Below, piece after piece: positions 20,503-60,278 of a DNA stretch of 64,000 bases. The DNA lies in UHGV virus genome UHGV-1374526, one strand, 5' to 3'. Source of the stretch: a virus. Under the pieces are notes generated by a model, which saw nothing but the letters and a program-made list of their open reading frames with translations, made no database searches and was not told where the DNA came from. Each line of letters begins with the position of its first letter. Within the stretch, counting starts at the first letter, position 1. The translations under genes were made by a program, and so were the position numbers.

Positions 20503-20536
20503 CCCCGGAGGCTAACCCCCTCCGGGGATTTTTATT
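20503..20536 (+). terminator. intrinsic terminator
   Basis: Stem ccccggagg / cctccgggg followed by atttttatt. Confidence 0.65.
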
Positions 20537-20581
20537 AAAATAATTTCTTGACAAATAATAAAATTATTATATGGTGGTGGC

Positions 20582-22681: not shown

Positions 22682-22784
22682 TATTACTGACATCCTTGCA
22701 TGGATAGGAATTACTCTGTGCATCCTCGCCCTATTCACCCTGTGGGTAATCGAAACCATTAAGAAGCATATCAAAAGAAAATGA
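22659..22784 (+). CDS. 41-aa single-TM micro-protein (not in ORF track)
   Basis: MTTTIFVSITDILAWIGITLCILALFTLWVIETIKKHIKRK. Its stop overlaps the ATG of the Cys-rich gene (ATGA). Confidence 0.35.
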   Translation: MTTTIFVSITDILAWIGITLCILALFTLWVIETIKKHIKRK

Positions 22785-23806
22785 ACGACGACGAACCAAA
22801 TTGTTGGACCTGCGCATACAGCAACTTCCCCGAAACCGCGGAACCCTGTGCATCCTGTGACATGTACTTTAGCCACTTTGAATCCAGTGAACCCACGGAA
22901 TCCACGGACACCGCGGCAAGCGAGGATGCACGGAGGTGCTCCCTCTGCAAATTCCGTGATATCCCGATAGTGCAATCCCCCTGCCAGAGGTGTGCTATCA
23001 CTCCCGGACTTCCCTGCTTCACCTCCGATACCAACAAATTGGTAGAGATGGAGAAGTTGAAGCGGGAAGAAGCAAAGCGGAGGGAAGCCAAGATGGCTGG
23101 TCCTACCTGTCTGGCATGTAAACATAAGGGGGTATCTATCCTAGAGGAACCCTGCATCTCCTGCAACGGCTATCAGAATTATACCCCAGATGAATCTGCG
23201 CCATGTGCCGAAGGTACGGACGAGAACGATGATGTCATCGAACCGTGCAATACTTGCACTCACCGGGATAACCTCCGTTGCAATCCTCCATGCTCTCATT
23301 GCCGACAGGAGCGGGGAATTGAGTACCCGGAATATGAAGAGGATAAAGGGGATGAAGAGGATGTCCCCTCCCCCTGCTCCACATGCAAGTACGGGGACTT
23401 GCCCGGAACCGTGGGACCCTGTGCTTCCTGTTTCGACGAGGGGCTGGACCATCCCCTGAACTACGAGGAAGCCACGGAATCCGGGGACGAGGAATCCAAG
23501 GACGAGGATTCCGGGGTCACAGAAATTGTGCCGAAGCATATTGTTGATATGTTTGTCGAAAGAGTGGGGCAAGAGGTGCGACGGCATTTTGAAGCCCACA
23601 ATGCTCATCCACGTCCTTGCCCCTACTGCGGAGAAATCCCGGAGGTCGTGGGGGAAACCATCTATCCCGGAGAGGAACATTGCTATGTCGTCTGCAACGG
23701 GGCCAAGCTTCTTCCTCATAGCATTTCCATTCATGGCCTCACTCGCGAAGAAGCGGTAGCCCGCTGGAATAGCTTCGTATTAACTATGAAGTCCCAAGAA
23801 AAATGA
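22781..23806 (+). CDS. Cys-rich protein with five tandem C-x2-C...P-C-x-S/R-C zinc-finger-like modules
   Basis: CWTC..PCASC; CSLC..PCQRC; CLAC..PCISC; CNTC..PCSHC; CSTC..PCASC; plus C-terminal CPYC...C..C. Acidic P/T/E/S linkers. Confidence 0.55.
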   Translation: MNDDEPNCWTCAYSNFPETAEPCASCDMYFSHFESSEPTESTDTAASEDARRCSLCKFRDIPIVQSPCQRCAITPGLPCFTSDTNKLVEMEKLKREEAKRREAKMAGPTCLACKHKGVSILEEPCISCNGYQNYTPDESAPCAEGTDENDDVIEPCNTCTHRDNLRCNPPCSHCRQERGIEYPEYEEDKGDEEDVPSPCSTCKYGDLPGTVGPCASCFDEGLDHPLNYEEATESGDEESKDEDSGVTEIVPKHIVDMFVERVGQEVRRHFEAHNAHPRPCPYCGEIPEVVGETIYPGEEHCYVVCNGAKLLPHSISIHGLTREEAVARWNSFVLTMKSQEK

Positions 23807-27385: not shown

Positions 27386-27488
27386 AAACTCCCACGGAAC
27401 CCACGGAACCCACGGCCAAATGGTCACAATGGGTTCCGTGGGTTCCTTCGTTGTGTCATACCCACTAGCGTGTGCGGTTGTGTCATAC
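27386..27488. repeat. non-coding iteron/inverted-repeat locus A (CCCACGGAA direct repeats + GGGTTCCGTGGGTTCC partner + TGTGTCATAC x2)
   Basis: cccacggaa x2.5 at 27391-27415. Inverted copy at 27431-27446. ttgtgtcatac at 27451 and 27478. Confidence 0.6.
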
Positions 27489-28217: not shown

Positions 28218-28667
28218 ATGAACACAAACCAAATATATTTTGACGGAAGCCTTGGACAGTTCATTCGCAAGGCGAACTATGAACTGGTAAGCGTAAACCC
28301 TACGTTGGAAGTTCAGCATGGAATATCCTCCCTTGTCCTCCATTTTGGCGCAGGATTTAAGGGAGACCTCCAATTTAATTTCTCCCATGCCTCTGCTCTT
28401 GGCAACATCTCTCTGGAATACCCCTTTATATGGAAGATTCAGTTAGCCCCGCTCAACGCCGGAGCCTTGCCTGTATGGAAGACAGTCGCGTCTGGCATGA
28501 CGGGCCCGGAGGAACCCGGAGGCACTGCTGACACCATTATCCTTCCGATTGGTCCATTGGAATTAGACCCTGCCGAATACCCTATCGGGACCTACTGGAT
28601 GACTGTTGAGTTCTCCGATTCGGTTAACTGGACCTGCACCTTCCCCTTCACTCTTCAAATCATCTAA
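28218..28667 (+). CDS. hypothetical protein
   Basis: 149-aa ORF. Confidence 0.45.
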   Translation: MNTNQIYFDGSLGQFIRKANYELVSVNPTLEVQHGISSLVLHFGAGFKGDLQFNFSHASALGNISLEYPFIWKIQLAPLNAGALPVWKTVASGMTGPEEPGGTADTIILPIGPLELDPAEYPIGTYWMTVEFSDSVNWTCTFPFTLQII

Positions 28668-29049: not shown

Positions 29050-29559
29050 ATGCCTACAACAACTCGCGTCCGAGAATTTTTCCTCTGCTCCGATGGCCCG
29101 GAGAGCAACCCCGAAGTAATAGCCACGGTACTTCCACGGCTTGACGGGGTTTGCTCCCGCGCCCGGTCCTTGACATGGGGCGTTATTGCCTATTCCCTCT
29201 CTCACTTCAACCTGCCCTTCGGTGTTGCCTTGGAGAACATGAGGAACGGTTATTGTGCCCGCGTCGTAGGAACGCCTACTGGGGAGGAAACCGAGGATGG
29301 GAATGAAGCCGCTGACGTTACCCCTTGGTTCATCCTGCAATCGTTCAAGACCGAGAGCGACGAATGGGACTACCGTTTCATGGCGTTGGAACCAATAGAG
29401 GCAGGAGCCGCCATTGATATGAAGAGGGATTATCTCCTGCCCGACGGGTGGTATAAAGTCGGAGAAGAGGTAACTCTTCGCAACGATTTCATCGCCTCCT
29501 TCTGTTGGGAGATTGCCATTCCCGGCGACACCTTAAAAGTAGAAACCGCAAACGCATAG
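29050..29559 (+). CDS. hypothetical protein
   Basis: 169-aa ORF. Confidence 0.45.
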   Translation: MPTTTRVREFFLCSDGPESNPEVIATVLPRLDGVCSRARSLTWGVIAYSLSHFNLPFGVALENMRNGYCARVVGTPTGEETEDGNEAADVTPWFILQSFKTESDEWDYRFMALEPIEAGAAIDMKRDYLLPDGWYKVGEEVTLRNDFIASFCWEIAIPGDTLKVETANA

Positions 29560-29563: not shown

Positions 29564-29818
29564 ATGAAGAAGACCAACGATATTAGTATTGTAGATAATA
29601 AGAGAGTAGGAATCCTCAAGGTGAAATATGATGGAGATACCTTTGCCATCTTTAACTATTGTCGGGAGGGAGACGAGAAGGAACAGTGTTATCCCACGCG
29701 CGAAAGGGCTATAGAAATGGCGAAGATGGTTGCTCGCCATCTCATCCACGCGAATCCCGTTATGACAGAAAGGGGCATTGACCTTTACCCGACAGACTGT
29801 ACAATCCAAGACGAATAA
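29564..29818 (+). CDS. tandem-array paralog 1 (~80-aa family)
   Basis: Shares the FxV...A.FNYC...G....T...A...A.K.AR core with the next five genes. Confidence 0.5.
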   Translation: MKKTNDISIVDNKRVGILKVKYDGDTFAIFNYCREGDEKEQCYPTRERAIEMAKMVARHLIHANPVMTERGIDLYPTDCTIQDE

Positions 29819-29821
29819 ACC

Positions 29822-30061
29822 ATGAACGACAAAGTAGCTATTTTAGAAGACAAAGGATTTGGATTCTTCCGAGTAACTCACTGTGGAAGTGTCATTGCAG
29901 ATTTTCTTTACTGCACAGGCTCTGGTGAACAAGGATATATGACACGAGATTCCGCAAAGAAACTGGCAACGAAGATTGCCCGCTACGTAGTTAGCAGAGG
30001 GACAGTTTGTACCATCGAGGGAGTATCACTTAACCAAATCATTTTCAACATCGATGACTGA
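29822..30061 (+). CDS. tandem-array paralog 2
   Basis: GFFRVTHCGSVIADFLYCTG...TRDSAKKLATKIARYV. 8-nt ATGACTGA overlap with paralog 3. Confidence 0.55.
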   Translation: MNDKVAILEDKGFGFFRVTHCGSVIADFLYCTGSGEQGYMTRDSAKKLATKIARYVVSRGTVCTIEGVSLNQIIFNIDD

Positions 30062-30290
30062 CACTCTAAATATTACCACCATAGATGACCCCGATATCGG
30101 GTTTTTCTGGGTCCTGCTTGAAAACTGTTGCGTTGCCACCTTTTACTATTGCGTGAAAGATGATAGTGGCTTCTTCACCAAGGAGCAAGCTAAGAAACTA
30201 GCCAACAAGCTCGCCCGCAAAATTGAGAAGAGCATGATTATCGAAACCGAAAAGGGAATCAAATTGGAAAGGAACAACATCAATGAATAA
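30054..30290 (+). CDS. tandem-array paralog 3
   Basis: MTDTLNITTIDDP...FFTKEQAKKLANKLARKIEKS. N-terminus near-identical to paralog 5. Confidence 0.55.
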   Translation: MTDTLNITTIDDPDIGFFWVLLENCCVATFYYCVKDDSGFFTKEQAKKLANKLARKIEKSMIIETEKGIKLERNNINE

Positions 30291-30519
30291 CGATTCAGAT
30301 ACCCGTGTTTATGACATCCCTACTAGCGGAATGTTCCGCGTCAGGCACAGAGGAAGTTGCGTCGCCGTTTTCAACTATTGCGTGGCAGATGAAAGCGGCT
30401 TCTTCACCAAGAAGCAAGCTAAGAAACTAGCCATCAAGTTCGCCCGCAAAATTGAGAAGAGCACGGTCATAGAAACAAAGATGGGAATCAAACTTAAAAG
30501 GAACAATACTAATGACTGA
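30283..30519 (+). CDS. tandem-array paralog 4
   Basis: FFTKKQAKKLAIKFARKIEKSTVIETKMGIKLKRNN, nearly identical to the paralog 3 C-terminus. Confidence 0.55.
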   Translation: MNNDSDTRVYDIPTSGMFRVRHRGSCVAVFNYCVADESGFFTKKQAKKLAIKFARKIEKSTVIETKMGIKLKRNNTND

Positions 30520-30760
30520 CACTCTAAATATTACCACCGTAGATGACCCCATTGCCGGATTTTTCCGGGTCATGCTTGAAAACTGTTGCGTTGCCGCCTT
30601 TTACTATTGCACGGAAGGCGAGGAAGGACATTTCACCAAGAAGCAAGCCAAGAAGCTGACCGAGAAGCTAGTCCGCAAAATTGAAAATAGTACGACCATC
30701 AAAACCAAAAAAGGATTCAAACTACTTAAACCGAAAGGGAACGACAATGACCAACGATAA
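30512..30760 (+). CDS. tandem-array paralog 5
   Basis: MTDTLNITTVDDP...HFTKKQAKKLTEKLVRKIENS. Confidence 0.55.
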   Translation: MTDTLNITTVDDPIAGFFRVMLENCCVAAFYYCTEGEEGHFTKKQAKKLTEKLVRKIENSTTIKTKKGFKLLKPKGNDNDQR

Positions 30761-31004
30761 GTATCTGCTGGAAACCTTCTTAATGGAATACCCGCGAGCA
30801 GGAATCATTGCGGTGATTCATCGAAACTACCGTATTGCCATGTTCCCCTATCACAGGAGCGAGGATGAGAAGGGACTTCCGACAAGGGACTGCGCCCTCA
30901 ACATGGCAATCGAACTTCGTGACAAGATTAAGAAATGCACGACGGAAGAATCCGACACGGGGATTACCTTCGTCGAAAAGGAACAACCAATCTTCAATGA
31001 CTAA
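30747..31004 (+). CDS. tandem-array paralog 6 (divergent)
   Basis: AGIIAVIHRNYRIAMFPYHRSEDEKGLPTRDCALNMAIELRDKIKK. Start moved to the ATG at 30747, which overlaps paralog 5 by 14 nt. Confidence 0.45.
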   Translation: MTNDKYLLETFLMEYPRAGIIAVIHRNYRIAMFPYHRSEDEKGLPTRDCALNMAIELRDKIKKCTTEESDTGITFVEKEQPIFND

Positions 31005-31428
31005 CAAACGCAAATTCAAAAAGGGAGACCTTGTTCGGTTCATCAACACAGGAAGGCATCCAGAAATACGTGAGAGTTTAGCGGAGGGTTCCCTAGTATA
31101 CGTCCAAGAAGAGGAAGGTATGGACCGTCGCATCCTTGTCAAGACCGGGGATGGGACACATAAGCGGTTCCCCTTCTATGAGTTTGAGCTAGTGGAAGAG
31201 ACCAAACATGAAGTCTTCGTCCGATACACACGGGACGAGGCTATCATCCTCTTCAACTATCAGCCCGTTCTCCGCATACCTACCAGATATAAGCTGGGCG
31301 ACCAAGAGGTCGATATGTGCTGGGAAGTAGAGGGCTGGGCCAAGTGTATTGTTGAAGACCTCAACGAGCATGTCATGTTGCCAGATATAGACAAAACCAA
31401 AAACGAAAATGGAACTGGGAAAGTATAA
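30997..31428 (+). CDS. hypothetical protein with SH3/KOW-like motif
   Basis: MTNKRKFKKGDLVRFINTG... The start overlaps the upstream stop (ATGACTAA). The ORF-track 30835 extension is discounted. Confidence 0.45.
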   Translation: MTNKRKFKKGDLVRFINTGRHPEIRESLAEGSLVYVQEEEGMDRRILVKTGDGTHKRFPFYEFELVEETKHEVFVRYTRDEAIILFNYQPVLRIPTRYKLGDQEVDMCWEVEGWAKCIVEDLNEHVMLPDIDKTKNENGTGKV

Positions 31429-31864
31429 GAACAGATTTAAGTGCGGCGACGTTGTTCTTCGGATAGATACGGGAAGATGTGGCATGTGTGGGGATAGCAT
31501 CCCAACAGGGTCTATCCTCCGGGTAATGTCCGACGAGGATGTTGCTGGTGTCGTTCGTGTCCAATATCCCCAAGCGAATGATGAAGACGAAGAGATACAG
31601 GATGTTATGTGGTACGAAATCGACCACTTACCCGCGAAAGCCAAGGTAGAAGAATTCTCGGATGCCGTGAGGGTGTCCATGAATGGGAACGCTATTGCCA
31701 CCATTCTCACGGACATTGCCACCCCATTGGGCACTCTTCATTTCGAAAGCTGGGCCAGAGAAATTGCCCAGTCGATGGCGAACATTATTAACCTTCAAAT
31801 CTCATTGGGGAAGCTAACCTCGGATGGAATCAAAGTAGAAAAAACTAATGACAAGGAAAGATAA
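31409..31864 (+). CDS. hypothetical protein with SH3/KOW-like motif
   Basis: FKCGDVVLRIDTGRCGMCGDSIPTGSILRV. Confidence 0.45.
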   Translation: MELGKYKNRFKCGDVVLRIDTGRCGMCGDSIPTGSILRVMSDEDVAGVVRVQYPQANDEDEEIQDVMWYEIDHLPAKAKVEEFSDAVRVSMNGNAIATILTDIATPLGTLHFESWAREIAQSMANIINLQISLGKLTSDGIKVEKTNDKER

Positions 31865-32615
31865 GATAAAGGAAATACAGAAGTGGGCGGGAACTACGCC
31901 CGATGGCATCCTTGGTGATAAGACCATTGATGCTATATGGAAGAAGATACAACCCACGGAATCCACGGTTCCCGATGAACAACCCAACGATTCCCCGGAA
32001 TCCGCGGGTCCCGCGGCATACGTGTCTCCGGCAGAGCTTGTCCGCAAGGGCATGGCTAAGAAGATTCTCAACATGGAGGACTACAAGATTACAGGTCCCG
32101 ATTCTCTGCGCGTAACTCGCCTCCCCTCCGGTGACGGCGGTGGCAAGTGGGAGATTGCAGGTATCTGTGATGGGATTGAACCCAAGGAATTCAATCTAAT
32201 CAAATCCATGATGGACCGGGGCGACAGGGATGCGGCATGGGAGGAATGCCTCCGCTATGTTCTCGCCAATACGGAACCGTTGGTTGCCAAGGGAGTTGCA
32301 GGATGCTACGCCATTGAGTTCATGCTTCGTGACATGACCTTCAACATGGGTGTGGCGGGAACGACTAAGGTCGTCCAGCGCATGCTCGACATTGATATTG
32401 ATGGCAAGTGGGGGAAAAATACTCAAGCCAAATGGACAGACGCCATTCAATCATGGGATGAAAAGGAAGTTCTCGATTCGCTGGACCGCGCTTGTCGTGC
32501 CCGCTATTGCTCCATTGTAAGAGCCAATCCGGTGAAGGCGAAGTTCCTTACGGGCTGGTCCAACCGATGCAATGCACGGCTTGCCTACGCTCTTACTCTG
32601 TTGTCAAGGAAATAA
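31848..32615 (+). CDS. endolysin-like protein (GH108-like core with peptidoglycan-binding repeats, tentative)
   Basis: N-terminal PG-binding-like GTTPDGILGDKTIDAIWKKI. LPSGDGGGKWEIAGICDG resembles the GH108 DPGGxTxxGIT block. C-terminal DIDGKWGKNTQAKW resembles PG_binding_3. Confidence 0.4.
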   Translation: MTRKDKIKEIQKWAGTTPDGILGDKTIDAIWKKIQPTESTVPDEQPNDSPESAGPAAYVSPAELVRKGMAKKILNMEDYKITGPDSLRVTRLPSGDGGGKWEIAGICDGIEPKEFNLIKSMMDRGDRDAAWEECLRYVLANTEPLVAKGVAGCYAIEFMLRDMTFNMGVAGTTKVVQRMLDIDIDGKWGKNTQAKWTDAIQSWDEKEVLDSLDRACRARYCSIVRANPVKAKFLTGWSNRCNARLAYALTLLSRK

Positions 32616-32681: not shown

Positions 32682-33035
32682 ATGTTTAATTTCATCGCAC
32701 AGCTTAATGCTACTGACGGCAACGTGTGGGCATTGTTTCTCACTCGTATCGTCGATGAAATGTCCCCCGCGTATCTCGTATTCGTGGGGGTTATTTACGT
32801 GGCAGTAAAGCTGGCATATAAGTACCTCTCAAAAAAGATAGAGTTTAGTCTTGATAAGGAGAAGTCATTTCTCATACTATTGCAAGAAGCTCTAAGAGTT
32901 ATATCCGAGTTGGATGATTCTCTAGACCAACTACATGGAAAAATAGACAATCTACGAAGCGACCATGAAGAGATAATCGACCGCGCCTTCTGCGCTATCT
33001 CGCAACAAGATACACACCCCCTCCGACAGAAATGA
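32682..33035 (+). CDS. small TM protein, holin candidate
   Basis: TM AYLVFVGVIYVAVKLAY. Position next to the endolysin-like gene. Confidence 0.35.
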   Translation: MFNFIAQLNATDGNVWALFLTRIVDEMSPAYLVFVGVIYVAVKLAYKYLSKKIEFSLDKEKSFLILLQEALRVISELDDSLDQLHGKIDNLRSDHEEIIDRAFCAISQQDTHPLRQK

Positions 33036-33544
33036 AACTATTCAATCTGTTCCGAAAAAGCCACGAGCAGGAACAACTCGAAAACGAGTTGACCCAGAAT
33101 CTTAATCAATTACAGGAAAGCATCCGTGCGTGTACTGAAAAACTCCGCTCAAGGAATCGGTTCTATGCCTCCCTTCCTATTGGTCGCGAGGGTGAGCTGA
33201 AACTGCCCAGAAACCAATGGGCCTATTTTTTACGGGGGAAAGTAGGAATTCGTTATGACGGAGAAACCCTTACCTCTTCGGTTACACAGGTTAAAACTCG
33301 TGAAGAAGTTCAACTGCCAAGAATTATTGACGCGGAGAGAAGTCATAAATTACTTGTCATACGAGGATATGTTATTGACAGGAGAACAAACCGCACCTAT
33401 TATCAGGGCGAGACAGTAAGTTTTCAGCGGGGAGAACCAATGCAATTAACGTTGAACGGGCATATTAGCATGATGTGGACACCCCCGCTTCCCGATGCAA
33501 TTATGCCGTTCTATCAAACCAATATACATGGCCTTGATTCCTAA
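33032..33544 (+). CDS. hypothetical protein
   Basis: 170 aa. ATGA overlap with the upstream gene. Confidence 0.4.
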   Translation: MKLFNLFRKSHEQEQLENELTQNLNQLQESIRACTEKLRSRNRFYASLPIGREGELKLPRNQWAYFLRGKVGIRYDGETLTSSVTQVKTREEVQLPRIIDAERSHKLLVIRGYVIDRRTNRTYYQGETVSFQRGEPMQLTLNGHISMMWTPPLPDAIMPFYQTNIHGLDS

Positions 33545-36410
33545 CACTCCGGCCTCCAACCCACAGCCTCCGACGATACCCATTGGAACCACGGATTCCT
33601 CGTGGCGCAATGGGTTCAGTCCTGACAGGCCAATGGGTGAGCCGATAATTAACTTTCCCACTCCTGTGGTAAAGAACGTGATGTTCTTCGTTGAGAGGAT
33701 TGCCAAGAATCCCAGCGAGATTACCATTGAATTGGGAACGCCGTTCGTACCCACCGCAGGTACGACCTTCCTCCCGTTTATGCGGGATGCAGTTCTCGTG
33801 CATGTCGAACCCGTCAATGAGGCGGCGAGACAGCACGTTTATCGTTTCTACTACATGGTCCCGCCGGAACAGCAGTTCCGATATAACATTCAGGACATGA
33901 AGAAAATCCGTGACGGCTATACGTTGAAAGATACTGCCGCTACGGGTAAGTTCATGGGTCCGGATGCAGACACGGAAGAGTTGAAGGACTTCTACGAGAT
34001 TACACGGGAATGGGTGGAACCCACGGATTCCGCGTATGCCCCGCTCCCCCTTGGCTCGTTTGACCCCAGCAACGAAAAGCTTGACCCTGACTTCTATGAC
34101 CAGCATTTCTACACGGCATACGATGCCCAGCTGGTATATGAAGAAGTAGCCCAGTTCGAAGAGGAACACCTGCGCAAGTACTTTCGTAAGGTCATCCGTG
34201 TGTATAAAACCCTGCCGGGACCTGTGGTTAAAGAGTTCGTCCCTTATAACATTTGGCAGAAGGGAGATACGGTGTGGGATGAAGGTGGTCCGGGAACGAA
34301 CCAGCCCGAATCTGAATGGGTGGCGCAGCCTGCAATTAAGTTATCAAGAGAGGTCTGGGCCGCGCCGCTTTGGCCCGTCGATGGTGGAGGGAAGGAACCG
34401 GGTCAGGCCCGCATTCCTCACATGCCCCTCCTTGAACTGGACAATAAGCCCGTTAGTGCTGGCTGGGACAAGGGCAGTTATCCGAGTACGCAGATGTACA
34501 CCCTTGTATCTATGTACAAACGGAACAGTAACATTGCGGAGAAAGAGGAACAGAACAGCCTCTCCGGTAATTGTTGTAACCCTGATTCCCGTTTTGTCCG
34601 GTGCATCAACACAACCGTGACGACTAGCCAGTCCGTTGACTGGACAGCAAACGGCGATGTCCCGGCGATTGACCCCCCGGACCCCAGCGAGAACTGTAGC
34701 CAATGGCGTGTAGATTCCTCTGTGGTAGTACATGAAGGGTACTCTCATAAGGAAACGCGAAAGAGTTGCACCACCTACGACCAGATTGATGAATTCTGGG
34801 AATCCTCATTCGATAGGATAACCAATCAGGTCTATCCTGTACTGCGGAAGATTGTACATAATCCGAGCACTGACTTCGATACTGATTGGCAGAATGAAGG
34901 ATTCACCAAATACACGGATGCCGTGGGCAATACCTACTATGGCCGTAAACTGGAATCCCCGGAATCCGTGGCTCCCATTACTATCCCGGACTCCGCTTGG
35001 GAGAAGATAGGCTACAACCTTGCGGACTTCACCGTAGAAGAGGAACCGACGTTTAATACCAAGATGCTCACCGGACTGTCCATGATTAACGGATGGAACG
35101 ACCCAGCCTATCCCCAGTTCTCTGACTACTTCGCTATGCTTGGTAGCTTCACCTCCGACAATAAGGGAGTCCCACGTGGTTCTCTCTACAACGTCCGGTT
35201 TAAGGGTCAACGCTGGTGGCAACTCTGGATTCAAAACGAGATGCCCACAGAAATGTCTCCCGGAACTATCACCGCCACTCCCTTCTATCATGCTCCCAAT
35301 CCTGACGGCCCTTGGTTCTCACAGGATGGGGTTTATAAGGTAAGGGGCGAAATGATGATTAACGATGTCCTCTATGGCGAGGGAGTTACGAGCAATGTCT
35401 GGACATTCCCCGTAGGTTTCATGGATGGTACGCAGATATATAAGCGGAAGGCCTATAACCCTGAAATGAAATTTACCACAGGGGCATTACCTACAGGTAT
35501 TGGGAAGGCGTTCACCACGGTGGAGAACGGAGAATTACTTCTCACCTGCTGGGTACTGAACAGCAATAAGGTTGCCATCAATGGGGAGATTCCCATCATG
35601 ATGAATAGTACGAAGATATTCGACATCAATGTATCTAGCTCTGATGCTCCCAGTACCACGCCGGAACCGAACATAAGCACAACTACCGTGGCTAAGGCAA
35701 AGTATACCGTTGGCAATTATGTATTAGACGCGCAGGTAGTGAATAACCTCAACATCACTTACAACCGGAATAAGTTCCCATTCTTCCAATTCACCATCAC
35801 GCTCTGCTCTCTCCGCGGCAATACGTTCAAGGTCACGCAGGGGGATAAGATTCAACGCGTCGTCCTGCGCCAATGGGTGAACCCCTGTTACGCCGTAGAT
35901 AGTTACATGCAGATTCCGGGAATCGGGTACTACAAAAAATATACCACGACGATGAACTACAGTTTCCCTGCCGTGTTCGGTTCGGTTAGTTGGGTTCCGT
36001 GGAATACGAGGCCCGACCTTTCTGGCAAGAATGCTGGACAGTACTTCCCGCAGACCCGGATGATGAGGGACAGTTACTCCGGCCCCTGCACCGCCGTGGT
36101 AGAGGAAGCCTTCTCCCCTGACGGAACATGGCCTAAAGGCTGGGGCCTTGGGACGTCGGTACAGTTCACGACGAACAGTGGATATTTCTCTTCACCGCTT
36201 TGCGATTACCGTCTGCCCGCATGCCTCCACGGCCCGCTGGCTATAACCGTAGTCATTGGCAATCAGGACGCCAAGTGGCTTCCCGGCGCGTTTAATACGG
36301 CCTTTCCGGGGACTACCCACACAGATTGGAAACCCGTGACCTCCTATTACGCATCCCCGTGGAACGGGGGCATGATGTGCAAGAAAGTAACCATTTATCC
36401 ACCCAGTTAA
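33528..36410 (+). CDS. large virion-associated protein (tail/baseplate candidate)
   Basis: About 961 aa, W/Y/N/T-rich beta composition. Start moved to the ATG at 33528 to limit overlap. Confidence 0.45.
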   Translation: MALIPNTPASNPQPPTIPIGTTDSSWRNGFSPDRPMGEPIINFPTPVVKNVMFFVERIAKNPSEITIELGTPFVPTAGTTFLPFMRDAVLVHVEPVNEAARQHVYRFYYMVPPEQQFRYNIQDMKKIRDGYTLKDTAATGKFMGPDADTEELKDFYEITREWVEPTDSAYAPLPLGSFDPSNEKLDPDFYDQHFYTAYDAQLVYEEVAQFEEEHLRKYFRKVIRVYKTLPGPVVKEFVPYNIWQKGDTVWDEGGPGTNQPESEWVAQPAIKLSREVWAAPLWPVDGGGKEPGQARIPHMPLLELDNKPVSAGWDKGSYPSTQMYTLVSMYKRNSNIAEKEEQNSLSGNCCNPDSRFVRCINTTVTTSQSVDWTANGDVPAIDPPDPSENCSQWRVDSSVVVHEGYSHKETRKSCTTYDQIDEFWESSFDRITNQVYPVLRKIVHNPSTDFDTDWQNEGFTKYTDAVGNTYYGRKLESPESVAPITIPDSAWEKIGYNLADFTVEEEPTFNTKMLTGLSMINGWNDPAYPQFSDYFAMLGSFTSDNKGVPRGSLYNVRFKGQRWWQLWIQNEMPTEMSPGTITATPFYHAPNPDGPWFSQDGVYKVRGEMMINDVLYGEGVTSNVWTFPVGFMDGTQIYKRKAYNPEMKFTTGALPTGIGKAFTTVENGELLLTCWVLNSNKVAINGEIPIMMNSTKIFDINVSSSDAPSTTPEPNISTTTVAKAKYTVGNYVLDAQVVNNLNITYNRNKFPFFQFTITLCSLRGNTFKVTQGDKIQRVVLRQWVNPCYAVDSYMQIPGIGYYKKYTTTMNYSFPAVFGSVSWVPWNTRPDLSGKNAGQYFPQTRMMRDSYSGPCTAVVEEAFSPDGTWPKGWGLGTSVQFTTNSGYFSSPLCDYRLPACLHGPLAITVVIGNQDAKWLPGAFNTAFPGTTHTDWKPVTSYYASPWNGGMMCKKVTIYPPS

Positions 36411-38394: not shown

Positions 38395-41300
38395 ATGGCT
38401 ATTGACTTTAGTACCGCCAATATGTCCGACTTCACTCCGAAGTCGGGAAGCAGTATTGCACGTGAACAGCGAGCCGCAGAAAGGCACGCCGCGTGGCAAG
38501 AGACGCAAGCGCAGAAACAGCAGGACCGAGAACAGAAAGCACTGGACCGCGAGCAAAGGTTAGCGGAAAAGAAACAGACCCGTGCCGAGAAGGGAGCGAC
38601 GGCGACCGCAGACTATGACACCTTCCTCTTTAAGTCTGTTGATGACTTTGCGGAGAAACAGAAAAAGGATGCGGAACACGCAAATAATGTAGAATGGCAA
38701 AATAAATCCCGCGCCCATACGGAACAAGAATGGAAAACCGCCGAGGAAAATAAAGCCCTCGACATCTTGAACAAAGGAAACCGTGGGTACAGCTTTGAGG
38801 GAATCGACTACATGAAAGACTATGTAGACCGCGGGGAAGATGCGCTGGTCGATTTGAAGGCCGCTTCCCGCGGTGATAGCGAGGCCATTAAGAAGCTTGC
38901 CAACAATACGGGACTTACCGTTGTGTCTTCTTCCGAGCTTACGCCTACGCACCCCACCTTCTTATCCCGCTCTGGCTTCGGAAGTGGAGAGGACGGGAAC
39001 CCCGTCGTAACGGAAAAGTTCCTCGCCATTGCCGCGGACAGAAACCGTAACGCAAAGGCGGTTGCCAAAGGCATTGCCAACACAATGGAAAAGGCCCGGA
39101 AGGATTACCTCAACTCGAATCTAGATGTTGGAACGGGTAAACCTACGGCGCAAGCCATCGAGACCGCACCTATTGCTTACACCGCAGAAGAAATAGAAAG
39201 CGTCATCAATACGATTAGGCGCGAAGACATTGGCAACTATCGTGCCGCTAAGGCTCTTTACGACAAACACCGCTCTTCTTCGACGGAAGGCGTGCAGAAG
39301 AAAACCCCCAGCCAAACGAGCGTGGGGGAGCTTGGCGTTGGCGAATTCTCTGATTCAGCACCTTCATTTACTGGGAATGTTTTTGCTGAACTCGCCAACC
39401 TTTCCAAGTCTCCCAGCAAAATGTTCCAGCTTGTCCGCGACTACGGGGATTACCTTTCCCGGAGTACGGAAGATATTGAATCCCCGGAATCTGCTACAGC
39501 GGATGCGAAACAACTCCATACAGACCAAGCAAAACTCATTTCAAAAAAAGAAAAACCTGTTGAGGATAGGATTCGTGAACAGATAGAAACAGCCGACAAA
39601 ATCGTAAGACGCCTCGAAGAGGACTACACTGGCCTTCCCTATCTCGAACTTCGCGACGCGCTTCTCAATCCAGAGGCCGCGGCCTCTGCCCTTCTGTCTT
39701 TAGTCCCCGGTGCTGACATGGACGCAATACGTGCACGGGCAAAGGTCATTACCGAGGAAGTTCGCCGCCAGAAGGACCGCCCTCTGACCGTCGAAAACCC
39801 CGAACAGATTGGCATGAGTGAGGCTATACTGGAAGCCGTGGCCACAAGGTTTCCGGGGGTTCCAAAATCTGCCCTGCGCCAAGCGGGAGTAACCAAACTG
39901 ATTCAGGACTATACCGCCAAAGCCACGCCGAAAGGCACTCTCATGGATGCAGTCAAAGGCGCACTGGCTAACTACCGAAGCACGGCGGGACAAATTGCGG
40001 ACGTACTTACCTTCCAACCGGATAATAGTGTGGGTAAGTACGCCGACCCAATGAGCTTGATGGAATGGAGGAAGGGAACGAGGCGTGGCTCATGGTGGTA
40101 TGGCATGCCGGGCGGCCCGTCCTTTGAAGTCGGACCGGAGAGGTTGAAGGAATACATGGCCCAGTACCATATTGAAAGTACTCGCGATGCCCTCAACTCC
40201 CTCTCCCATGCCGCACGTATGGGTGACTTGGGCGTTGGCCGTGGCAGTCTCTTTGCGTACAATCCGCACACCAAGGAAGTTGATACGAACGCCACGCTCG
40301 AACTGAATCCCAATGCTCTCTACAATGATAAGCTGATGGACCAGAGCATTGAGGCTCTCCGTGCTAGTGGCGCGGACGAGAAGCTTATCAATCGCACCAT
40401 TGAGAAGTTCCAGAACCTCCGCAAGAAATCCGCACAGGAACTTGTGAAGGACAACATGGCATTGGACGAGACGCTGGGGACGCTTCGCGATACGTGGCTT
40501 GGCTCCGGCTTGCAGTTCAACCCTGTCTTGACTGAATCCATGAAGCATCTGGACAAGTACCTTTCCTTCAAGAATTTCTACAACGAACAGAAGGAAGCGG
40601 GCAAGAGCGACGAGGACATCCTCTCCGCATGGCAGGAGAAAGGGCAAGCCACCTTCGATTCTGTTCTCCGTGGGTTACAGATAGGTACACACAAGGCAAT
40701 CGACCTTGGGACAAGTACCGCCTATGGTGCTCTTCTCTTTGCACAGAATGCAGTTGGCAGTCGTGCGGCGATGGAACATACCCGCACCCTCTGGGACCAG
40801 CTGAACAAAAAACAGGAAGCAGAAGCCGAGTTGGTTCGAGGCAATATCCTTGCGGACTATACTGCGGAAATCGCTAACCTCGGCTACCAAATGGTAGCAA
40901 CCGCGGGGGCTGGTAAAGTTGGTGGCCTCGCTGGCCGTGCACTGACACGTACCGCGCTCAATAAATTCATGAAGGCAACGGCTAACGTCGTAGCGAAGCG
41001 GGCCGAAGCTCTTGTCCCTGCCGCCCGTCCGGGATTGGCGGGACGTTTGAGTGGAACTATTCAGCGCAACCTCGACAACCTTGCGGCGTTGAACCTCGAA
41101 CGGGCAGGAGCCGGAGCCGGGGTAAATCTTAGCATCATCTCGCAGGTTGCACCGAATGCTTACTCCGACATCTTCTATACCATTTATGATAGGGAGATGG
41201 AAGGGAAGGAACCGACTGCCGAGAACACGAACAGGGCACAGAGCATTGCCAACATGCGTGCTCTCTTTGGTGCGGCTCTCGTATCTACTGGTAGTACTCT

Positions 41301-44300
41301 CATCAACAACCGCGCAGGTATGGATTCCTTCATGCGTAAGATTGTTGGGGCTAAAAACCTTCGCGGTCAATCTCCATTCCAAACTCTTGAACGGAAGATG
41401 GCCGGATGGAGAAGCAAGCCATTTAAGGAGATGAACACGAAGGAAAAGACGTTTGCCGTTGCTTCCTATCTGTACAGCCAGAGCAAGGCCGTAGTGGAAG
41501 GAGCCACCGAAGAACTGGCAGACGAATTCCAAGAGTGGGCGTTTACCGAACTGGTGAAGAACGGAGAAATCTCCGAATCCTCTATTGCCACTACTGACCA
41601 AGTGATTAGCACAGGCATGAAGATTGCTTTCCTCGGAGGTATCGGCGGCTACGTTGGTAGCCACTTAGCTGGTGAAGGGAACATACGTTTCCAAACCGAA
41701 GCCGCTCCCACTCTCGATGTAAAGGATGCTACTTCCATGCTACCGGATATTACGAAAGATGCGAGCAACATCATCGAGGAAACGGGCAAAGCCATTACCA
41801 AAAACAATGTGCCGGAAAGCTTGGTAGAAACCGGAAAGAAGGTTATCGAGATTGCCGGGGAGAAGGGAGATGCCGCGGAAGTTGCCCGCGAATGGGTGGA
41901 CAAATCCATTGCCCATGAAAGTCTGGCAGTCTCCGATGAAACCCGCAAGGCGTGGGTGGAAGGAGCAACCCGTATGGGCATCAGCAACTTCACCCAGTTC
42001 CGCAACCTAGTGGAACGGGCCTCCGAAATATATACCTATGAGGGCAGTGCCGCGGCAAGCTCATTCATGGCAGAAGCCATTAACGACCTGCCCAATACCC
42101 TGTCATTCCCAAATAAGGAAAACCTCGACACCATGCGCACCATGCTTTCGGAGGCCCTTGATGCTATGGGAGACCGGGTTCAGGTTATCGAAGTAGACGA
42201 CGACCTGTCCATCATTACTACAGGGGACGAGGACCTTGATGCCGCCATTAACGTTATTAACGGATTGACGGAAGCCGCGGCTACCACGGAACCCAAGGAA
42301 TCCCCGGCTACCGCGGAACCCACGGAATCCCCGGTAGCTATTGCCCGGAAGGAGAGGGACAATGCTATTGCCCCCATCACTGCTATGGTAGAGACGGGAG
42401 TAGTTACCCCAGAAGCTACCGCTTCCGTGGATAACATGGATGCGGCAATCACCTCGTTCGACCCCAACACCGGGGCATGGCTCTCATCCGGTTCACCTCT
42501 GGACCGCGGCGCGAAGCTCGTCTCCCTGAACGAGATGACCGGGATTAACGCCCCCATGATTACCAGCAACACGGGAGAAACCGTTGTCATCGCTCCGCAC
42601 GCAAGCATGTACAACACAGGTGAGGGAGGGACACCCAGCACCAAGTGGGGGGACAAGGTCTCCGCTCTCAATCTCCCGACGGATGGGACTGGCGCAAATG
42701 CCTACGGCACGCTTCGCGGCCTTCAAGTTAATGCCTCCCCCGCACAGGCCGCGGCCATTGATGGAGTGCTCCGCGCACTGCATGCCGCTGGTTTGGACGT
42801 CGCTATCCGTGCAACCAATGCCCCGGCGAACATCTCTTCCCCTGCCAGTATCACCTACATGAACGGCACGGACGGGAAGCTTGTCGGCGGTGTCATTGAC
42901 CTGTACGTGAACCGGGATAACCCGATTGAAAGCGTAACGGGAACGGTACTACACGAAGTCATCCACCTCATTGACCGTCATCTTCGTACCACCAACACGG
43001 ACTATTCCCAGCGGATGGATAGGATTAGAAGCGCGATTGCAGAGAACTACAACAACATTGTCGATAGTCTCTCCGCTATGTATGACGCTAGCGTGGACAT
43101 CAATGAGATGAACGCCATCGCCGCGCTCGCTTCCGACCTCAACTACGGTCTCCGCGGTGCGGACGAATTTGCCAGTGTCGCGTTCTCCAATCCTGTCATG
43201 AACTTCATGGTAGCGGAAGCTAGCGGAGACAATATCACCATCACGGATTTGGCTCGCTATGCCGAAGCGGCGGGAGGCCGGAAGCCCGTGCACGTGCGCC
43301 TCGTCGAATGGCTTAAAGATTTGATTAGGGACATCAAAGATACTGCGGACGATATGGACGGAACCACCGCCGCAGAACGCGTGGCTGAATGGGATTCCTA
43401 TGTGGCCCGCGTCGCGGACATGACCCCCGGCAAGTGGTTCGATATGCCTCGCACTCCGTCATGGAAAGTAGATGATACGGATTATACTATGGGCAACGGG
43501 GTAGATTATTTTAACCCGATGGCCTATGAGACCGACATGACCCGGAGATTGTCCTTCGGCCTTGGCGCAGAAATCATTGGCACGAAGGCCGGGAACTGGG
43601 TAACTAGTATTAAGAACGTATGGCAAGGCGTGTCTAAGGGCTTGGACAAAGCAGGCATCAATGTTAAGTCCGAGGAACAGAAGCTGGTTGTGCTGGAACA
43701 AATGGCCAATGTTAATGCGGCGTATGAACGCAGTATTAAACGCATTGACAAAATTGGTGATATGCTTCAACGCCGTGCGGATAATCTGGGCTGGGATGCC
43801 GCTACGCGAAAGAAATGGAGCAAGTCCATTCTTGACATGTCGGGGAATATGGACAACGATATTGACCCTGAAACTGTTGCACGCATTAACGCAGAGGCTC
43901 AAGCAGAAGTTCGTCAGCATGAACAGACCCGCGACTTCCGTATCGCGTTGGCTAAGAAGACTGTCACCGATGCCGTCAATAGGCACGCGGAAGCGGTGCG
44001 TCTGGCTAACTCCCTTGCGCTTAATAGTGAAGGGCGATTGGAAATCAACGACATGATGCGCCGGATTAAAGACATGAGCGGCAAGGGATATGGAGCCATG
44101 CTGGACAAGCAGGTAGCTCTCCCCATGCTCTCCCAGCAGATTCACAAATCTCTCTCCGACCTTGGCTCTCGTATCTCCGCGACGGGGGATGCCAATCTGG
44201 ATATCACCTACTTTGGCCTTGCCCGCGACACGCAAAACTATCTCGCGGATATGATTAACGAAGTGGATAGTCCCTTCTCTATGGATGAACTTCTGGACAG

Positions 44301-47300
44301 GTGGTCCAACCTTCGCAATGACTTCCTCTATGCGGAGAGTACAAACCATCCCGTCATCGCTCCTATGATTCAGGACATCGCTAAGGCACGGGCCGAAGCT
44401 AAACAAATCATCCGGGAAGCCAATGATGATTTCCACGCCGCAACAAAGAGGGCAGGTGTAACTCGCGCTGGCGTAGCTACCCCTGCTGGTTCCGTGTGGC
44501 TGAAACGAGACAACGCTATCCTCAATGCTCGCCGTCAAAAACAAGCGGAGTATATGGCTAAGCGGGATGCCGCTGAACAGTGGCTTCTGTCACAAGGAGT
44601 TGTAGGCCAACTGGTCCACAATGTCATCGCCGATTCCCGTAAAGAAATTGCCGCAACGCAAATCTCTATTGCCAAGCTCATTGGAGATAGCCGTATGGCT
44701 GACAACGCCGCGGAGATGAATTATCTTCATCGCACCTACATGGCCGTTGGACGCCATGCCGGAGACTTCACCCGGACGATGAAGGACATCATCGCAAACC
44801 CCAACGGAGAACTGGCGCAGAAATACGATGGTCTGACGAAACTGTTGCAGGAAGCCGCAATCTCTCATGCCGAAGCGCACCAGAGAGAACTATCCGAAAA
44901 CGTAAGCCAAGTGCTGGACAACATGCAGGCATTGGCCGCGCTCCACGACGAGTTGAAACTTCCGCTGGTGTCAGCTCCCACGGGAGCCTCTTCGAATTAT
45001 AAACTCCTGTTCGAAGGTGTAGCCAAGAACTACAGGACCAGAGAAATTCTTGACTTCATTCAGAACAACTTCGGTCAGGTTCAAATGCTTGCGGACTTGA
45101 GGGACGGCCACAACATCAGTGCCATATATAATAAGGCCATGAGCATGATAGCACAGGCAGACTATCGCACGAAGTCAAAGATGACAGAGAGGAAGGAAAC
45201 TCTGGACATGAATGCCAGAGATAGTTTCCTCGCTGATGTCTTCTCCAGCCTTCCGGGAAAAACGATTGCGGACAAAATCGGCAGTCTTCAATCCCCGGCA
45301 TCCGTGGCTTCCGAAGTGAACAAGGCCATCCCCACTATCCCGACTTCGGCCATTGACCAGATATGGAACACGCCTAATATGAATGCCGCAGAACGACTGG
45401 ACAAGACGCTCAATCTTCTTCGCGGTCAGGCTGGCGTTCTCATGAGGATGAACGGCATGGGCAACGTCATCTCCGCTACCGACTTGAAAGCGTTGCAATA
45501 TCCGGAACTCTCCCGTCTTGCGGTGAACGATGCCATGAAGGCCATTGACGAAGTACTGTCCAAGAAGAGGACGAATGAAGATGCGCTGGCCCAGCGGAAA
45601 CGCTTGCCCGAATGGCAGAGGAAAGCTATGTATGAACTTAGCGACCTCACCATTGGGGATGCCATTGGGACGTTACAGAATACCCTATCCATGCAGTCGA
45701 AGATTGCCGTGAACCAGTTGCTTGCTGACGAGTATACCTCCGTACTGAAAGCGCAGGGTGTGGTCGTACCCCCGAATTCCACGAACCGTACTTCGGACAT
45801 GGTGGAAATCTCCTTGAAGAATACGAAGAATGCGTTGAACGGAATGTACGCCGACAAGGATGTAGCCGATGCCATCTACCGCATCTACAGGCCGAGCGAC
45901 GACATCCTGAATAGCAGGACGGACGACTATAAGGAGGTCCGCGAGTACTGGCAGAAGTCCGGCAAGGGGCAAGGATGGTGGAGTAAGGCGGGTGGCTTGG
46001 CTAACCTTTCTGTCTTAATAGCGAGTCCTAATTCCACGTTACGTAACTTATATGGTACAGTAGCTCAAATGACCCATGCGGGTGCACTTCCATTCACGGG
46101 GAGTAAAGAAATCGCAAAGCTTATCGGAGATTGGAGCCAGATGTATAAACTGCGGAAGTTGTCCCGCGGTAAAGACCTTGCTTCACAGGCTTCCGCGGAT
46201 AGACTGCTGGCCGCGGAAGACAGGTACAACGAGAAGATTCGCTACTGGCAAGAGCTTGGTCTGCTGGACGCAGGTCAAGGGGAGTTCCTGCGCAACGTCT
46301 GGAAGTCTGACGAGTTCAGTAAGATGGCAGGAGAATTTGAAGAAGTGAATGAGGATTCCTTCTTCAAACTGGCCGAAGCTCTGAACGAGAAACAGGAACG
46401 GACGAAGGGCGAGGTGGCTAAGGATGTCGCCAAGACGGCGGGCAAAGTCGTAGCATGGCCCATCAAAACGATGTCCTTCGCCTATGGCTTGCCGGACGCG
46501 GCGGCCAAGATTGCTCTCTTCACTAACCAGAGAGCGATTGCCGATACCCAATTAAAGGTACAACTGGCACGGGCGAAAGGCAAGGCCAACCCCAATGCAC
46601 GGGACCAGATACTCCTTGACGCGAGCCAGACTACCCAGAGTTGGGATGCTTATGTGGACAGGTATACTGCCAACATGGTGAAGAGCTTGCTCCCCACGGG
46701 TTCGCGTACTCCTTCGTGGGTGAAAACCCTGAATATAGTTGCGGCTCCGTTCTTCATGTTCCAGTACCATACCTTCCAGTCTGTAGCCTACAACCTTGGC
46801 CACGCCATAGGTGAAGGGGTAGACGGTGTGTGGGCTATCAATAACGGCATGAAGAAGGAGGGGGCTTACCTCTTGGGACGCGCTATCCTTCGCATCGCTG
46901 GTTCCGCAGTAACTATTGGTGCAACCTCTGCGGTCTCTTCCTGGGTTGCCCGACAGATTATCGCCAGTGTCTTGGGAGATGACGATGACCATAAAATCAT
47001 TGACGACGCGGAAGTCATGAGGAAGCTGGCAGATAGTGGGCTAATTCCTGACTATGATAAGTTCGGGGACTTGATTGGCATCATAGATATGAAGCGACAT
47101 GAGTTCGAGTATTTGACCCTTGAATACATGAACCCGTTCAAGACCATCAGGGTGTTAGCCAAACCCCTGCCCAGCCTCTTCATGGATATGGATGTGGACA
47201 AGTGGGGGATGAACAAGGTTGCCGAACTGAAAAACCTGCTGGAAAATACGGTGCTTGAAGAATCCCTCCTTCTGAACACAGCTACTGAATTGTTTAATGA

Positions 47301-58391: not shown

Positions 58392-58464
58392 TGCTTTATT
58401 CTTTCTATTAGTTTATTGTTGTTTGGTTTATTGTTGCGGGGTTTGTCCCCCGCTGGATGATTTC

Positions 58465-58492
58465 AGTTTAGCAGATTTTCTTATCTTGTCAA
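58465..58492 (-). promoter_or_regulatory. leftward promoter cassette copy (TTGACAAGATAAGAAAATCTGCTAAACTG)
   Basis: -35 TTGACA and -10 TAAACT on the minus strand, followed by leader hairpin gcgggg/ccccgc at 58436-58453. Confidence 0.55.
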
Positions 58493-58530
58493 ATTATTTT
58501 TTAAGTTGTATGACAAAAAGCGTATCTTAT

Positions 58531-58959
58531 TTATTTTGAGAAGAGAACAACGAGGGGGATAGGAATATCCAAAAAGTTTCTATCTGTGTAAAGGGTAAAA
58601 GAATCAGAGTTTGTGCCATAATATTGCACGGCTCTTTCCCGGAATAATCTAATAGAGTTGCTTCTCACATACGGTTCGGCTTTCGGCTCGCACGTAGGAA
58701 CGGTGGTTGTGCAATCGGAAAGACGAGCACGGAACCTTTCTGTATTTTCAATCAAGTCCCTAACCTTGTAAGCGTTAAACTCTACAAGTTTAATGCTAAC
58801 GGCATTCTGAATACTGACGTGTTCATGAATCTCCTGCGCGTCCGGGTAGTAGTCATAGGTGCGCACAATGCGGCACTTTTCACCTTGGCTATTAACGGCG
58901 TTTGATGAAACGTCTTGCGCTTCCGTAGTTCCCCATACTTCAATCTCATTTTCTTTCAT
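58531..58959 (-). CDS. hypothetical protein
   Basis: 142-aa ORF. Confidence 0.45.
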   Translation of the reverse strand: MKENEIEVWGTTEAQDVSSNAVNSQGEKCRIVRTYDYYPDAQEIHEHVSIQNAVSIKLVEFNAYKVRDLIENTERFRARLSDCTTTVPTCEPKAEPYVRSNSIRLFRERAVQYYGTNSDSFTLYTDRNFLDIPIPLVVLFSK

Positions 58960-59011
58960 AGTATTATTCTTTCTATTGTTTTGTTGATATAGTTGCCGCC
59001 CTTCCGGTGGC

Positions 59012-59039
59012 TGATGAATGTACTTTAGCAGATTTTCTT
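59012..59039 (-). promoter_or_regulatory. leftward promoter cassette copy
   Basis: TTGACAAGATAAGAAAATCTGCTAAAGT on the minus strand. Confidence 0.55.
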
Positions 59040-59109
59040 ATCTTGTCAAATACTTTTTGTAGAGCGGCGTAGTTATTCACGGTCTGTAATTTATGATTGG
59101 TTTATTGTT

Positions 59110-59264
59110 AAACCCCGGAATCCCCGGAACCCGTTGCACCCGATATCCCCCGCATTCCGGGGGCGGGAATTATTCCTTTGTCTTTCTACTTTTTCTTTCT
59201 ATTTGGTTAGAGTTATTTGACGGGTTCCGGGGGTTCCGGGGTTTAAATGTTCCACGTGGAACAA
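59110..59264. repeat. iteron/inverted-repeat locus B: 24-bp arms AAACCCCGGAATCCCCGGAACCCG / CGGGTTCCGGGGGTTCCGGGGTTT (1 mismatch) separated by about 87 bp, plus palindrome TGTTCCACGTGGAACA
   Basis: Arms at 59110-59133 and 59221-59244. Palindrome at 59249-59264. Non-coding 317-nt gap. Confidence 0.65.
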
Positions 59265-59276
59265 GCCGCAAGTGGT

Positions 59277-59807: not shown

Positions 59808-59861
59808 AATATGGTTGCTTTCTATTGTTTTATTGTTGTTTGATTTTATAGGGCGGCGTAG

Positions 59862-60191: not shown

Positions 60192-60250
60192 GATATAGTG
60201 TTTTTTAGGTTTGAGGTTATGCGGGAGACAAGCTCCCGCTTGCTGATTTT

Positions 60251-60278
60251 AGTTTATCGGATTTTATTATCTTGTCAA
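60251..60278 (-). promoter_or_regulatory. leftward promoter cassette copy
   Basis: TTGACAAGATAATAAAATCCGATAAACT on the minus strand. Leader hairpin gcgggag/ctcccgc at 60221-60239. Confidence 0.55.

Follow-up and report, generated by a model that had tools for sequence, protein, structure and literature searches.

What does a row of six small related genes do in a phage genome, and how long has it been there? These questions are raised by positions 29564-31004 of UHGV virus genome UHGV-1374526, of which one stretch of 64,000 nucleotides (nt), here called the window, was analysed. An earlier note on this DNA had described the row as a tandem array of translationally coupled paralogs, and had ascribed it to very recent, ongoing duplication and recombination. 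We find that the array is an old multigene family on which purifying selection acts and in which gene-conversion patches and unequal crossing-over occur; it is not a fresh amplification. It is remodelled continually by unequal homologous recombination and gene conversion, mainly among its third to fifth genes, and it is the reshuffling of this subfamily, not duplication, that is recent.

Six complete copies and their junctions

The array is made up of six co-oriented open reading frames (ORFs), p1 to p6, coding for 84, 79, 78, 78, 82 and 85 amino acids (aa). They are listed here with their isoelectric points (pI) and, for three of them, the E-value at which a leave-one-out hidden Markov model (HMM) recognises the copy.

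29564-29818, plus strand: p1, 84 aa, pI 5.7, leave-one-out HMM E = 1.5e-12
29822-30061, plus strand: p2, 79 aa, pI 6.5, leave-one-out HMM E = 8e-15
30054-30290, plus strand: p3, 78 aa, pI 5.1, first unit of a 229-nt DNA-level tandem repeat
30283-30519, plus strand: p4, 78 aa, pI 9.9
30512-30760, plus strand: p5, 82 aa, pI 9.1
30747-31004, plus strand: p6, 85 aa, pI 5.4, the most diverged member, leave-one-out HMM E = 7e-9

The description of six consecutive, related genes of 78-85 aa was borne out over exactly this span, and the homology is full-length: in the end-to-end alignment nine columns do not vary (M1, G16, V20, A28, F30, Y32 and one each of T, A and G). With the database size set nominally to 1e6 sequences, the leave-one-out E-values lie between 7e-9 and 5e-29 for all copies. 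In pairwise BLASTP the E-values run from 5e-33 for p3 and p5 to 0.016 for p1 and p6 and 0.21 for p2 and p6, the last two being the weakest pairs. The core motifs quoted in the earlier note are found, as GFFWVLLENCCVATFYYC in p3 and FTKKQAKKLAIKFARKIEKS in p4. All six reading frames are intact, and the G+C content of the array is 0.44, against 0.51 for the window; the array is also A-skewed.

In the DNA, only p3 to p5 are detectable as a tandem repeat, and their nucleotide identity to each other is 71-80%.

30046-30723, plus strand: tandem repeat p3-p4-p5, period 229 nt, 3.0 copies, 71% matches

A common 5' end had been reported for p3 and p5, and indeed their first 27 nt are identical, as are 38 of the opening 39 nt. 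The near-identical C-termini reported for p3 and p4 are there in part: similarity peaks in the loop-helix region (86-96% nucleotide identity over nt ~120-200, with a longest exact run of 24 nt), but at the extreme 3' end it is only about 71%. Exact runs between any two copies are at most 27 nt long.

Every junction had also been taken for a start/stop overlap. This is true of four of the five internal junctions: p2/p3 and p4/p5 overlap by 8 nt (ATGACTGA in both), p3/p4 likewise by 8 nt (ATGAATAA), all three of the general form ATGA-N-T-R-A, and p5/p6 by 14 nt (ATGACCAACGATAA). Between p1 and p2, in contrast, there is a 3-nt spacer (TAA-ACC-ATG). At its ends, the array starts 4 nt past the stop of a conserved upstream gene, and p6 overlaps the next gene, gene 7, by 8 nt (ATGACTAA). 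The array is a tandem start-on-stop set of paralogs, and the overlaps are the basis on which the genes may be called translationally coupled. Start/stop overlaps of 4, 8, 10 and 14 nt are common elsewhere in the same genome; since similar overlaps are so frequent, those of the array are nothing special.

Remodelling and age of the array

The conserved upstream gene was used as an anchor to fetch 36 related loci (L001 to L036), in which copies were counted by the family HMM. The anchor itself has no array-family, Pfam or PHROG match.

29050-29559, plus strand: conserved upstream gene, 169 aa, 92-99% identity in 33 IMG/VR contigs

Copy number varies strongly among these relatives. The 34 untruncated arrays hold from one to seven full-length copies, with a median of five: one copy in one genome, two in two, three in two, four in seven, five in 12, six in eight and seven in two. 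With the window counted in, 32 of 35 arrays are distinct in their make-up. Some features are kept throughout: the last array gene is of p6-type in almost all relatives, a p2-type copy is present in nearly all, and the spacing pattern of -3, 8, 8, 8 and 14 nt is conserved and bound to the paralog type, so that junction types move along with the adjoining gene halves. The same small genes are called in relatives by independent gene callers. The position of p1 is less stable: in some relatives it is missing, or preceded by an extra diverged copy (split and apparently pseudogenised in L018), or relocated, as in the order 2-3/5-1-2'-6. In L007 it is precisely absent, with the junction at the microhomology AGAC.

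Chimeric copies are frequent, and nucleotide alignments show sharp switch points in them. Copy 1 of L007 is p2 as far as the helix and p5-like after it; copy 4 of L001 is first p3-like and then p5; copy 3 of L012 begins as p4 and continues as p3. Database proteins further include array copies fused to gene 7 and to the gene that follows it, gene 8. How fast the locus changes is best seen in L010, whose flanks are 96.5-97.5% identical to those of the window at the nucleotide level, yet which has four copies instead of six.

The surroundings are also recombining. In the window and L001 to L036, genes near the array (28218-28667, 30997-31428, 31409-31864, 33032-33544 and 33495-36410) occur as two or more discrete alleles. 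The identity of the diverged alleles is about 70-80% for gene 8, ~88% for 33032-33544 and ~80% for the other neighbours, against about 97% otherwise. Which allele a genome has at one gene is independent of the others, a sign that homologous recombination is pervasive in the phage population. In the array, units are deleted, duplicated and fused by recombination; near-identical phages therefore carry from one to seven copies, and almost each genome has its own set.

It counts against these copy numbers that they derive from metagenome assemblies, where repeats can be mis-joined. In the extreme case the whole array would be an artefact, either one longer gene broken by frameshifts or repeats made or collapsed during assembly, and the few fusions among the database proteins could be read that way. 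However, every unit is a separate and complete copy of the domain with its own ATG and stop, the exact runs between copies are short (see above), and dozens of contigs show the same gene sizes. In an independent sample, a different one in IMG, L005 has the same six genes in collinear order, with 97.8% nucleotide identity over all 1441 nt. Mis-joining is argued against because identical architectures recur in different contigs, and the probability of an artefact is in our opinion close to nil.

The age of the copies was estimated from synonymous divergence (dS) and from the ratio of non-synonymous to synonymous change (dN/dS). Against all other copies, dS of p1, p2 and p6 is saturated, while for pairs within p3, p4 and p5 it is 0.5-1.3; dN/dS between copies is 0.25-0.49. 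Between genomes, the median identity of orthologs is 96% for p1, 94% for p2 and 96.5% for p6, level with the flanking genes. The medians for p3 to p5 are 71-87%, low mostly through mosaicism. Since dS is saturated, dN/dS is low and the paralog types persist as orthologs, the family must be old and constrained. Of the history proposed in the earlier note, the ongoing recombination and change in copy number hold good, as the chimeras, the range of copies and L010 demonstrate, but the very recent duplication does not for the whole family, as dS is mostly saturated.

A locus from which copies are so readily lost might consist of duplicated DNA that has no function or is nearly neutral, at a recombination hotspot where ORFs are kept by chance or by hitch-hiking. 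The losses come at no obvious cost, down to arrays of two copies and of one; the extra copy of L018 is split, and fusions to neighbour genes are found among the database proteins. Against this stand the six intact frames, the eight core residues that are invariant or nearly so in 225 sequences, and the p2- and p6-types that are kept in almost all genomes. Further, a dN/dS of 0.25-0.49 in combination with saturated dS means that the frames have long been maintained. We consider neutrality very improbable.

How does the array compare with known plastic loci? In gene accordions, near-identical units have been amplified recently and are selected for dosage; the poxvirus gene K3L is an example, in which a counter-defence gene is amplified. 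In phage T6, segmental amplification driven by SegB changes the copy number of counter-defence genes (PMC13096335). The array is like viral gene accordions in that its tandem copy number shifts by recombination between repeats and differs between close genomes. It is unlike them in that its units are old and diverged, with saturated dS and 71-80% nucleotide identity in p3 to p5, and persist as orthologs; also, no homing endonuclease is seen beside the array. A recent amplification of the accordion type was rejected: near-identical repeat units are absent, and dS between copies ranges from 0.5 to saturated.

A closer likeness is found in loci where adjacent paralogs are reshuffled. T4-like phages have polymorphic internal-protein (ip) loci with a conserved capsid-targeting leader. 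In the lpl cluster of Staphylococcus aureus, tandem paralogs are reported to evolve via recombination units that span adjacent ORFs (PMC2568036). The array resembles these loci in that homologous recombination reshuffles neighbouring paralogs, that junction types go with the gene halves, and that a plastic locus lies inside an otherwise conserved genome. The protein families are unrelated to that of the array, the lpl genes encoding bacterial lipoproteins, and no capsid-targeting leader was noticed in the array proteins, although none was looked for. The array is a new protein family, while the phenomenon, plastic tandem paralog loci in phage genomes, is already known. In the literature we found no earlier description of the family, nor of comparable arrays in gut phages.

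The family is restricted to one clade of ~70-kb phages. A profile search of 5.8 billion proteins gave 199 matches, essentially all on 65-72-kb contigs, and an exhaustive HMM search of 1.84 billion cluster representatives only 23; the protein clusters of the clade have up to about 220 member sequences each. Its sample names suggest human-gut metagenomes. Elsewhere the searches were empty: Pfam, PHROGs, NCBIfam and PADLOC, among which there is no dedicated anti-defence library, gave no match at E <= 0.01 for any of the six proteins, the best E in an HMM search of PDB sequences was 0.37, Foldseek against the BFVD viral models gave nothing at E <= 0.001, and p4 had no counterpart by tblastn in 50,697 deposited phage records. 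No homologue among structural or housekeeping phage proteins thus emerged from these searches.

The population-level picture of the array is unusually clear. The array differs in almost every genome while the flanks are 95-99% identical, which makes the locus a natural experiment in the variation of small accessory proteins. Even if the function turned out to be mundane, it would be a clean and well-sampled case of unequal crossing-over and gene conversion in a phage of virulent type.

Predicted fold, variable face and candidate functions

Structure was predicted with AlphaFold from an alignment of 47 sequences. In the model three strands (7-12, 17-22 and 25-31) lead through a loop into a helix (43-61), and a hairpin modelled with low confidence comes last; its mean predicted local distance difference test score (pLDDT) is 77.7, and the block values are 89-93 over most of the strands and the helix. 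The array proteins are thus predicted to consist of a three-stranded antiparallel sheet on one amphipathic, mostly basic helix, followed by the short hairpin. This is a common beta3-alpha fold, which the earlier note had not recognised, and the predicted likeness is greatest to AP2 and integrase-Arm domains.

Sub-threshold Pfam matches point in the same direction. The commonest is to Arm-DNA-bind_4 (PF14657), found in 18 of 47 members and always in the loop-helix segment. For p4 it covers residues 38-61 with 14.1 bits and E = 0.037, and the best E in the 47 members is 0.013; AP2 (PF00847) is matched by one of the 47, at E = 0.15. The motif G-F-x-T-K-x-x-A at the start of the helix corresponds to GGFRTKSEA in the integrase of Sfi21, a bona fide PF14657 member (E = 1.8e-15). 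The likeness of the predicted fold and the common motif are real, while membership in the Arm-DNA-bind_4 family is not established.

Like AP2 and Arm-DNA-bind_4 domains, the array proteins are predicted to have a three-stranded antiparallel sheet and then one helix. Unlike them, they are stand-alone proteins of ~80 aa with an extra N-terminal strand and the C-terminal hairpin, and have no fused recombinase or HNH nuclease; no integrase or HNH domain was seen among the window ORFs scanned. Their basic residues are chiefly on the helix, and several paralogs are acidic.

The double-stranded RNA-binding domain (dsRBD) was also considered. It has a beta-beta-beta-alpha unit too, with (S/T)-K-K-x-A-K-x-x-A at the N-terminus of the helix, and PKR is matched weakly by HMM (E = 0.52), with F-x-Y ... 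T-K-x-x-A-K-x-L-A aligned. Membership was rejected: the model is without the N-terminal helix alpha-1, no profile match is significant, and the scores are below those of AP2. In addition, the lysines of K-K-x-A-K are not kept in p1 and p6.

The variation among family members is not evenly spread over this fold. In 225 distinct sequences G16, V20, A28, F30, Y32, T42, A46 and G68 are invariant or nearly so, while entropy is highest, 2.1-2.9 bits, at the alternating positions 19, 21, 25, 29 and 31 and in the turn 14-15. Invariant and hypervariable positions alternate along strands 2 and 3. From this alternation and the predicted strands we infer a conserved core and one diversified, exposed face of the sheet. 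It would be the face by which AP2 and Arm domains read DNA. In AP2-DNA complexes Arg and Trp are the residue types by which the sheet contacts DNA; at position 19, 177 of the 225 sequences have R, W or K. The helix of p2 to p5 has six to eight Lys or Arg.

A variable face of this kind would make the array a panel of small binders on a common scaffold. The reading that we favour, tentatively and with less than even confidence, is that the proteins are such binders on an AP2/Arm-like scaffold, co-expressed and individually dispensable, with nucleic acid as the most likely target. The target could be phage or host DNA, or possibly RNA, through the TKKxAKK helix. Each paralog type would have its own specificity, and the role of the set would be to tune infection and not to build the virion. 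If the sheet face does bind, the family provides natural variants of differing specificity on one tiny scaffold, an aid to finding the targets, be they in host defence, in host DNA or in phage DNA, and possibly to engineering.

Several observations weigh against nucleic-acid binders of this type. No Pfam match reaches its threshold (22.3 bits is the gathering score of PF14657), and hhalign of the family against 13 PF14657 sequences, Sfi21-related and of low diversity, aligns 26 columns of loop and helix only, with E = 0.006 and a probability of 6%. The exposed face derives from the alternation and the predicted strands, not from coordinates. Of the six proteins, whose pI spans 5.1-9.9, p1, p3 and p6 are net acidic (5.1-5.7). 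In p3 and p5 the putative exposed face is for the most part hydrophobic (F, W/R, L/M, V, T/A, Y), and would for that reason be better suited to a protein-protein interface than to DNA. Finally, repeated DNA motifs were searched as candidate binding sites, and none was tied to the array.

Proteins could be the targets instead. In this main rival reading, which takes up the earlier note's idea of an anti-defence or host-interaction arsenal, each type would neutralise a different host protein, for instance a component of a defence system, and recombination would provide new specificities and adjust dosage. The hydrophobic exposed positions of p3 and p5 speak for it. Lower G+C and lineage restriction, both common in accessory genes, fit this idea, as the family is lineage-specific and of lower G+C (0.44 against 0.51). 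Members appear dispensable singly and vary highly in number between near-identical phages, the surface is hypervariable on a conserved scaffold, several copies have an acidic pI, and phages that escape immunity by altering how many copies of anti-defence loci they have are a precedent (PMC13096335). However, there is no likeness to any defence or anti-defence family in PADLOC, Pfam, PHROGs or NCBIfam. Nor is there an arms-race signature over whole genes, since dN/dS stays under 0.5 and the neighbours are no better conserved than p1, p2 and p6. The array further lies deep in a long same-strand block beside an endolysin-like gene, and not in the minus-strand region of small genes with promoter-like modules. 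In balance this explanation seems to us unlikely.

A more far-reaching form of the binder idea is that the array is a shuffling repertoire, in which a hypervariable sheet on the AP2-like scaffold would be reassorted among copies and give each genome its own specificities against host targets, be they defence proteins or DNA sites. If true, this would be a way for a virulent gut phage to diversify by shuffling, different both from diversity-generating retroelements and from simple dosage accordions. We regard it as doubtful.

The proteins might instead be subunits of a hetero-oligomeric complex, such as a regulator, a chaperone or a minor virion or assembly component, with start-on-stop junctions for stoichiometric co-translation and with paralogs that are partly interchangeable. 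The overlaps are conserved and bound to paralog type in relatives, selection is purifying, and the array is near the endolysin-like gene and large downstream ORFs; the low-confidence C-terminal hairpin, with its invariant G68, could fold only upon binding a partner. Yet a fixed stoichiometry ill fits one to seven copies and frequent chimeras in near-identical genomes, similar overlaps are found genome-wide, and no homology to structural proteins was found in Pfam, PHROGs or by Foldseek against BFVD. A complex of this kind is distinctly improbable, though more credible than neutral DNA.

Neighbouring genes and genome context

Two genes directly downstream of the array have a common SH3/KOW-like N-terminal barrel.

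30997-31428, plus strand: gene 7, 143 aa, N-terminal domain common to gene 8 (BLASTP against the gene 8 N-terminus, E = 2e-6)
31409-31864, plus strand: gene 8, 151 aa, SH3/KOW-like N-terminal barrel and C-terminal beta-beta-beta-(hairpin)-alpha domain

In its C-terminal half, gene 8 is collinear with the array family over 65 columns (E = 1.2e-4, probability 55%), and has there the beta-beta-beta-alpha topology of the family and the motif T-x-x-G-I-K-V-E (in the form common to both, T-x-x-G-I-K-[LV]-E). This domain is probably a remote member of the array family. A search with the gene 8 alignment gave the same contigs again and no remoter relatives. The C-terminal ~75 aa of gene 7 occur as a stand-alone protein of 75-88 aa in L027, L029 and L030. 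Gene 7 was considered as a possible seventh member of the array family; hhalign between the two was not significant, and a relationship may or may not exist.

The window covers the greater part of a phage genome of ~70 kb. On its plus strand, DNA polymerase A, a helicase, an exonuclease and the large terminase subunit are followed by many unannotated ORFs and the array; downstream are genes 7 and 8, the endolysin-like gene (PG_binding_3) and large ORFs, the longest named here having 3231 aa. ThyX and an NAD-dependent ligase are encoded on the minus strand, together with many small genes. The window has no tRNA or Rfam hit, and no integrase was found among the ORFs scanned; the phage is probably virulent.

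By sequence comparison, neither the deposited phages nor the GTDB genomes include the lineage. The large terminase subunit (6545-8383) has no tblastn match at E <= 1e-5 in the 50,697 deposited phage records, DNA polymerase A (392-2446) has matches of at most 27% identity among deposited phages, and megablast of 7 kb against those in INPHARED gave no match. The upstream anchor gene was not found in 185,579 GTDB species genomes. Few genes (9 of 69) have a Shine-Dalgarno motif, and the leaders are rich in A; this suggests a host of Bacteroidota type.

Upstream of the block that bears the array, there is a strong terminator-like hairpin at 20503-20527, with a 9-bp stem (eight G-C pairs) and a T-run behind it. 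Promoter-like hexamers come next, at 20535-20575, and together the two likely form a transcription-unit boundary. At 22781-23806 there is a 341-aa protein with a weak C-terminal match to a Lar-like restriction-alleviation zinc ribbon (PHROG 599, E = 5.6e-4), and in the gene tables of relatives its counterparts carry Pfam Lar_restr_allev marked "weak". Downstream, the 3231-aa ORF (38395-48090) has no Pfam match, and neither have the preceding ORFs of 971, 247 and 376 aa.

A second paralog pair is located in the small-gene region of the minus strand, at 59862-60191 and 62324-62692 (109 and 122 aa, 44% identity, E = 2e-31). In the same region, at 58406-63575, six copies of a ~55-nt element lie between the small genes. 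Their coding strand holds TTGACAAGATAAGAAAATCTGCTAAA, and they are accompanied by conserved A-rich leaders and motifs of the GGGCGGCGTA type; they have the look of promoter/leader modules that recur in an early region. Near the end of the window, at 63686-63748 and 63837-63997, there are about seven copies of tandem 9-mers CCCGGTTCC and repeats of the GGGTTCAACGG type. These are probably non-coding and might mark an origin or the genome end.

A 9-nt-periodic motif, GGAAyCCnCGG, occurs in many ORFs (for instance at 22881-22921, 27389-27416, 31949-32021, 42263-42335 and 59108-59141). It probably encodes linkers, since in the endolysin-like gene it is held by a stretch rich in Pro, Thr, Glu and Ser. 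Two of its occurrences, 59108-59134 and 59220-59246, form an inverted repeat of 27 nt with 96% complementarity.

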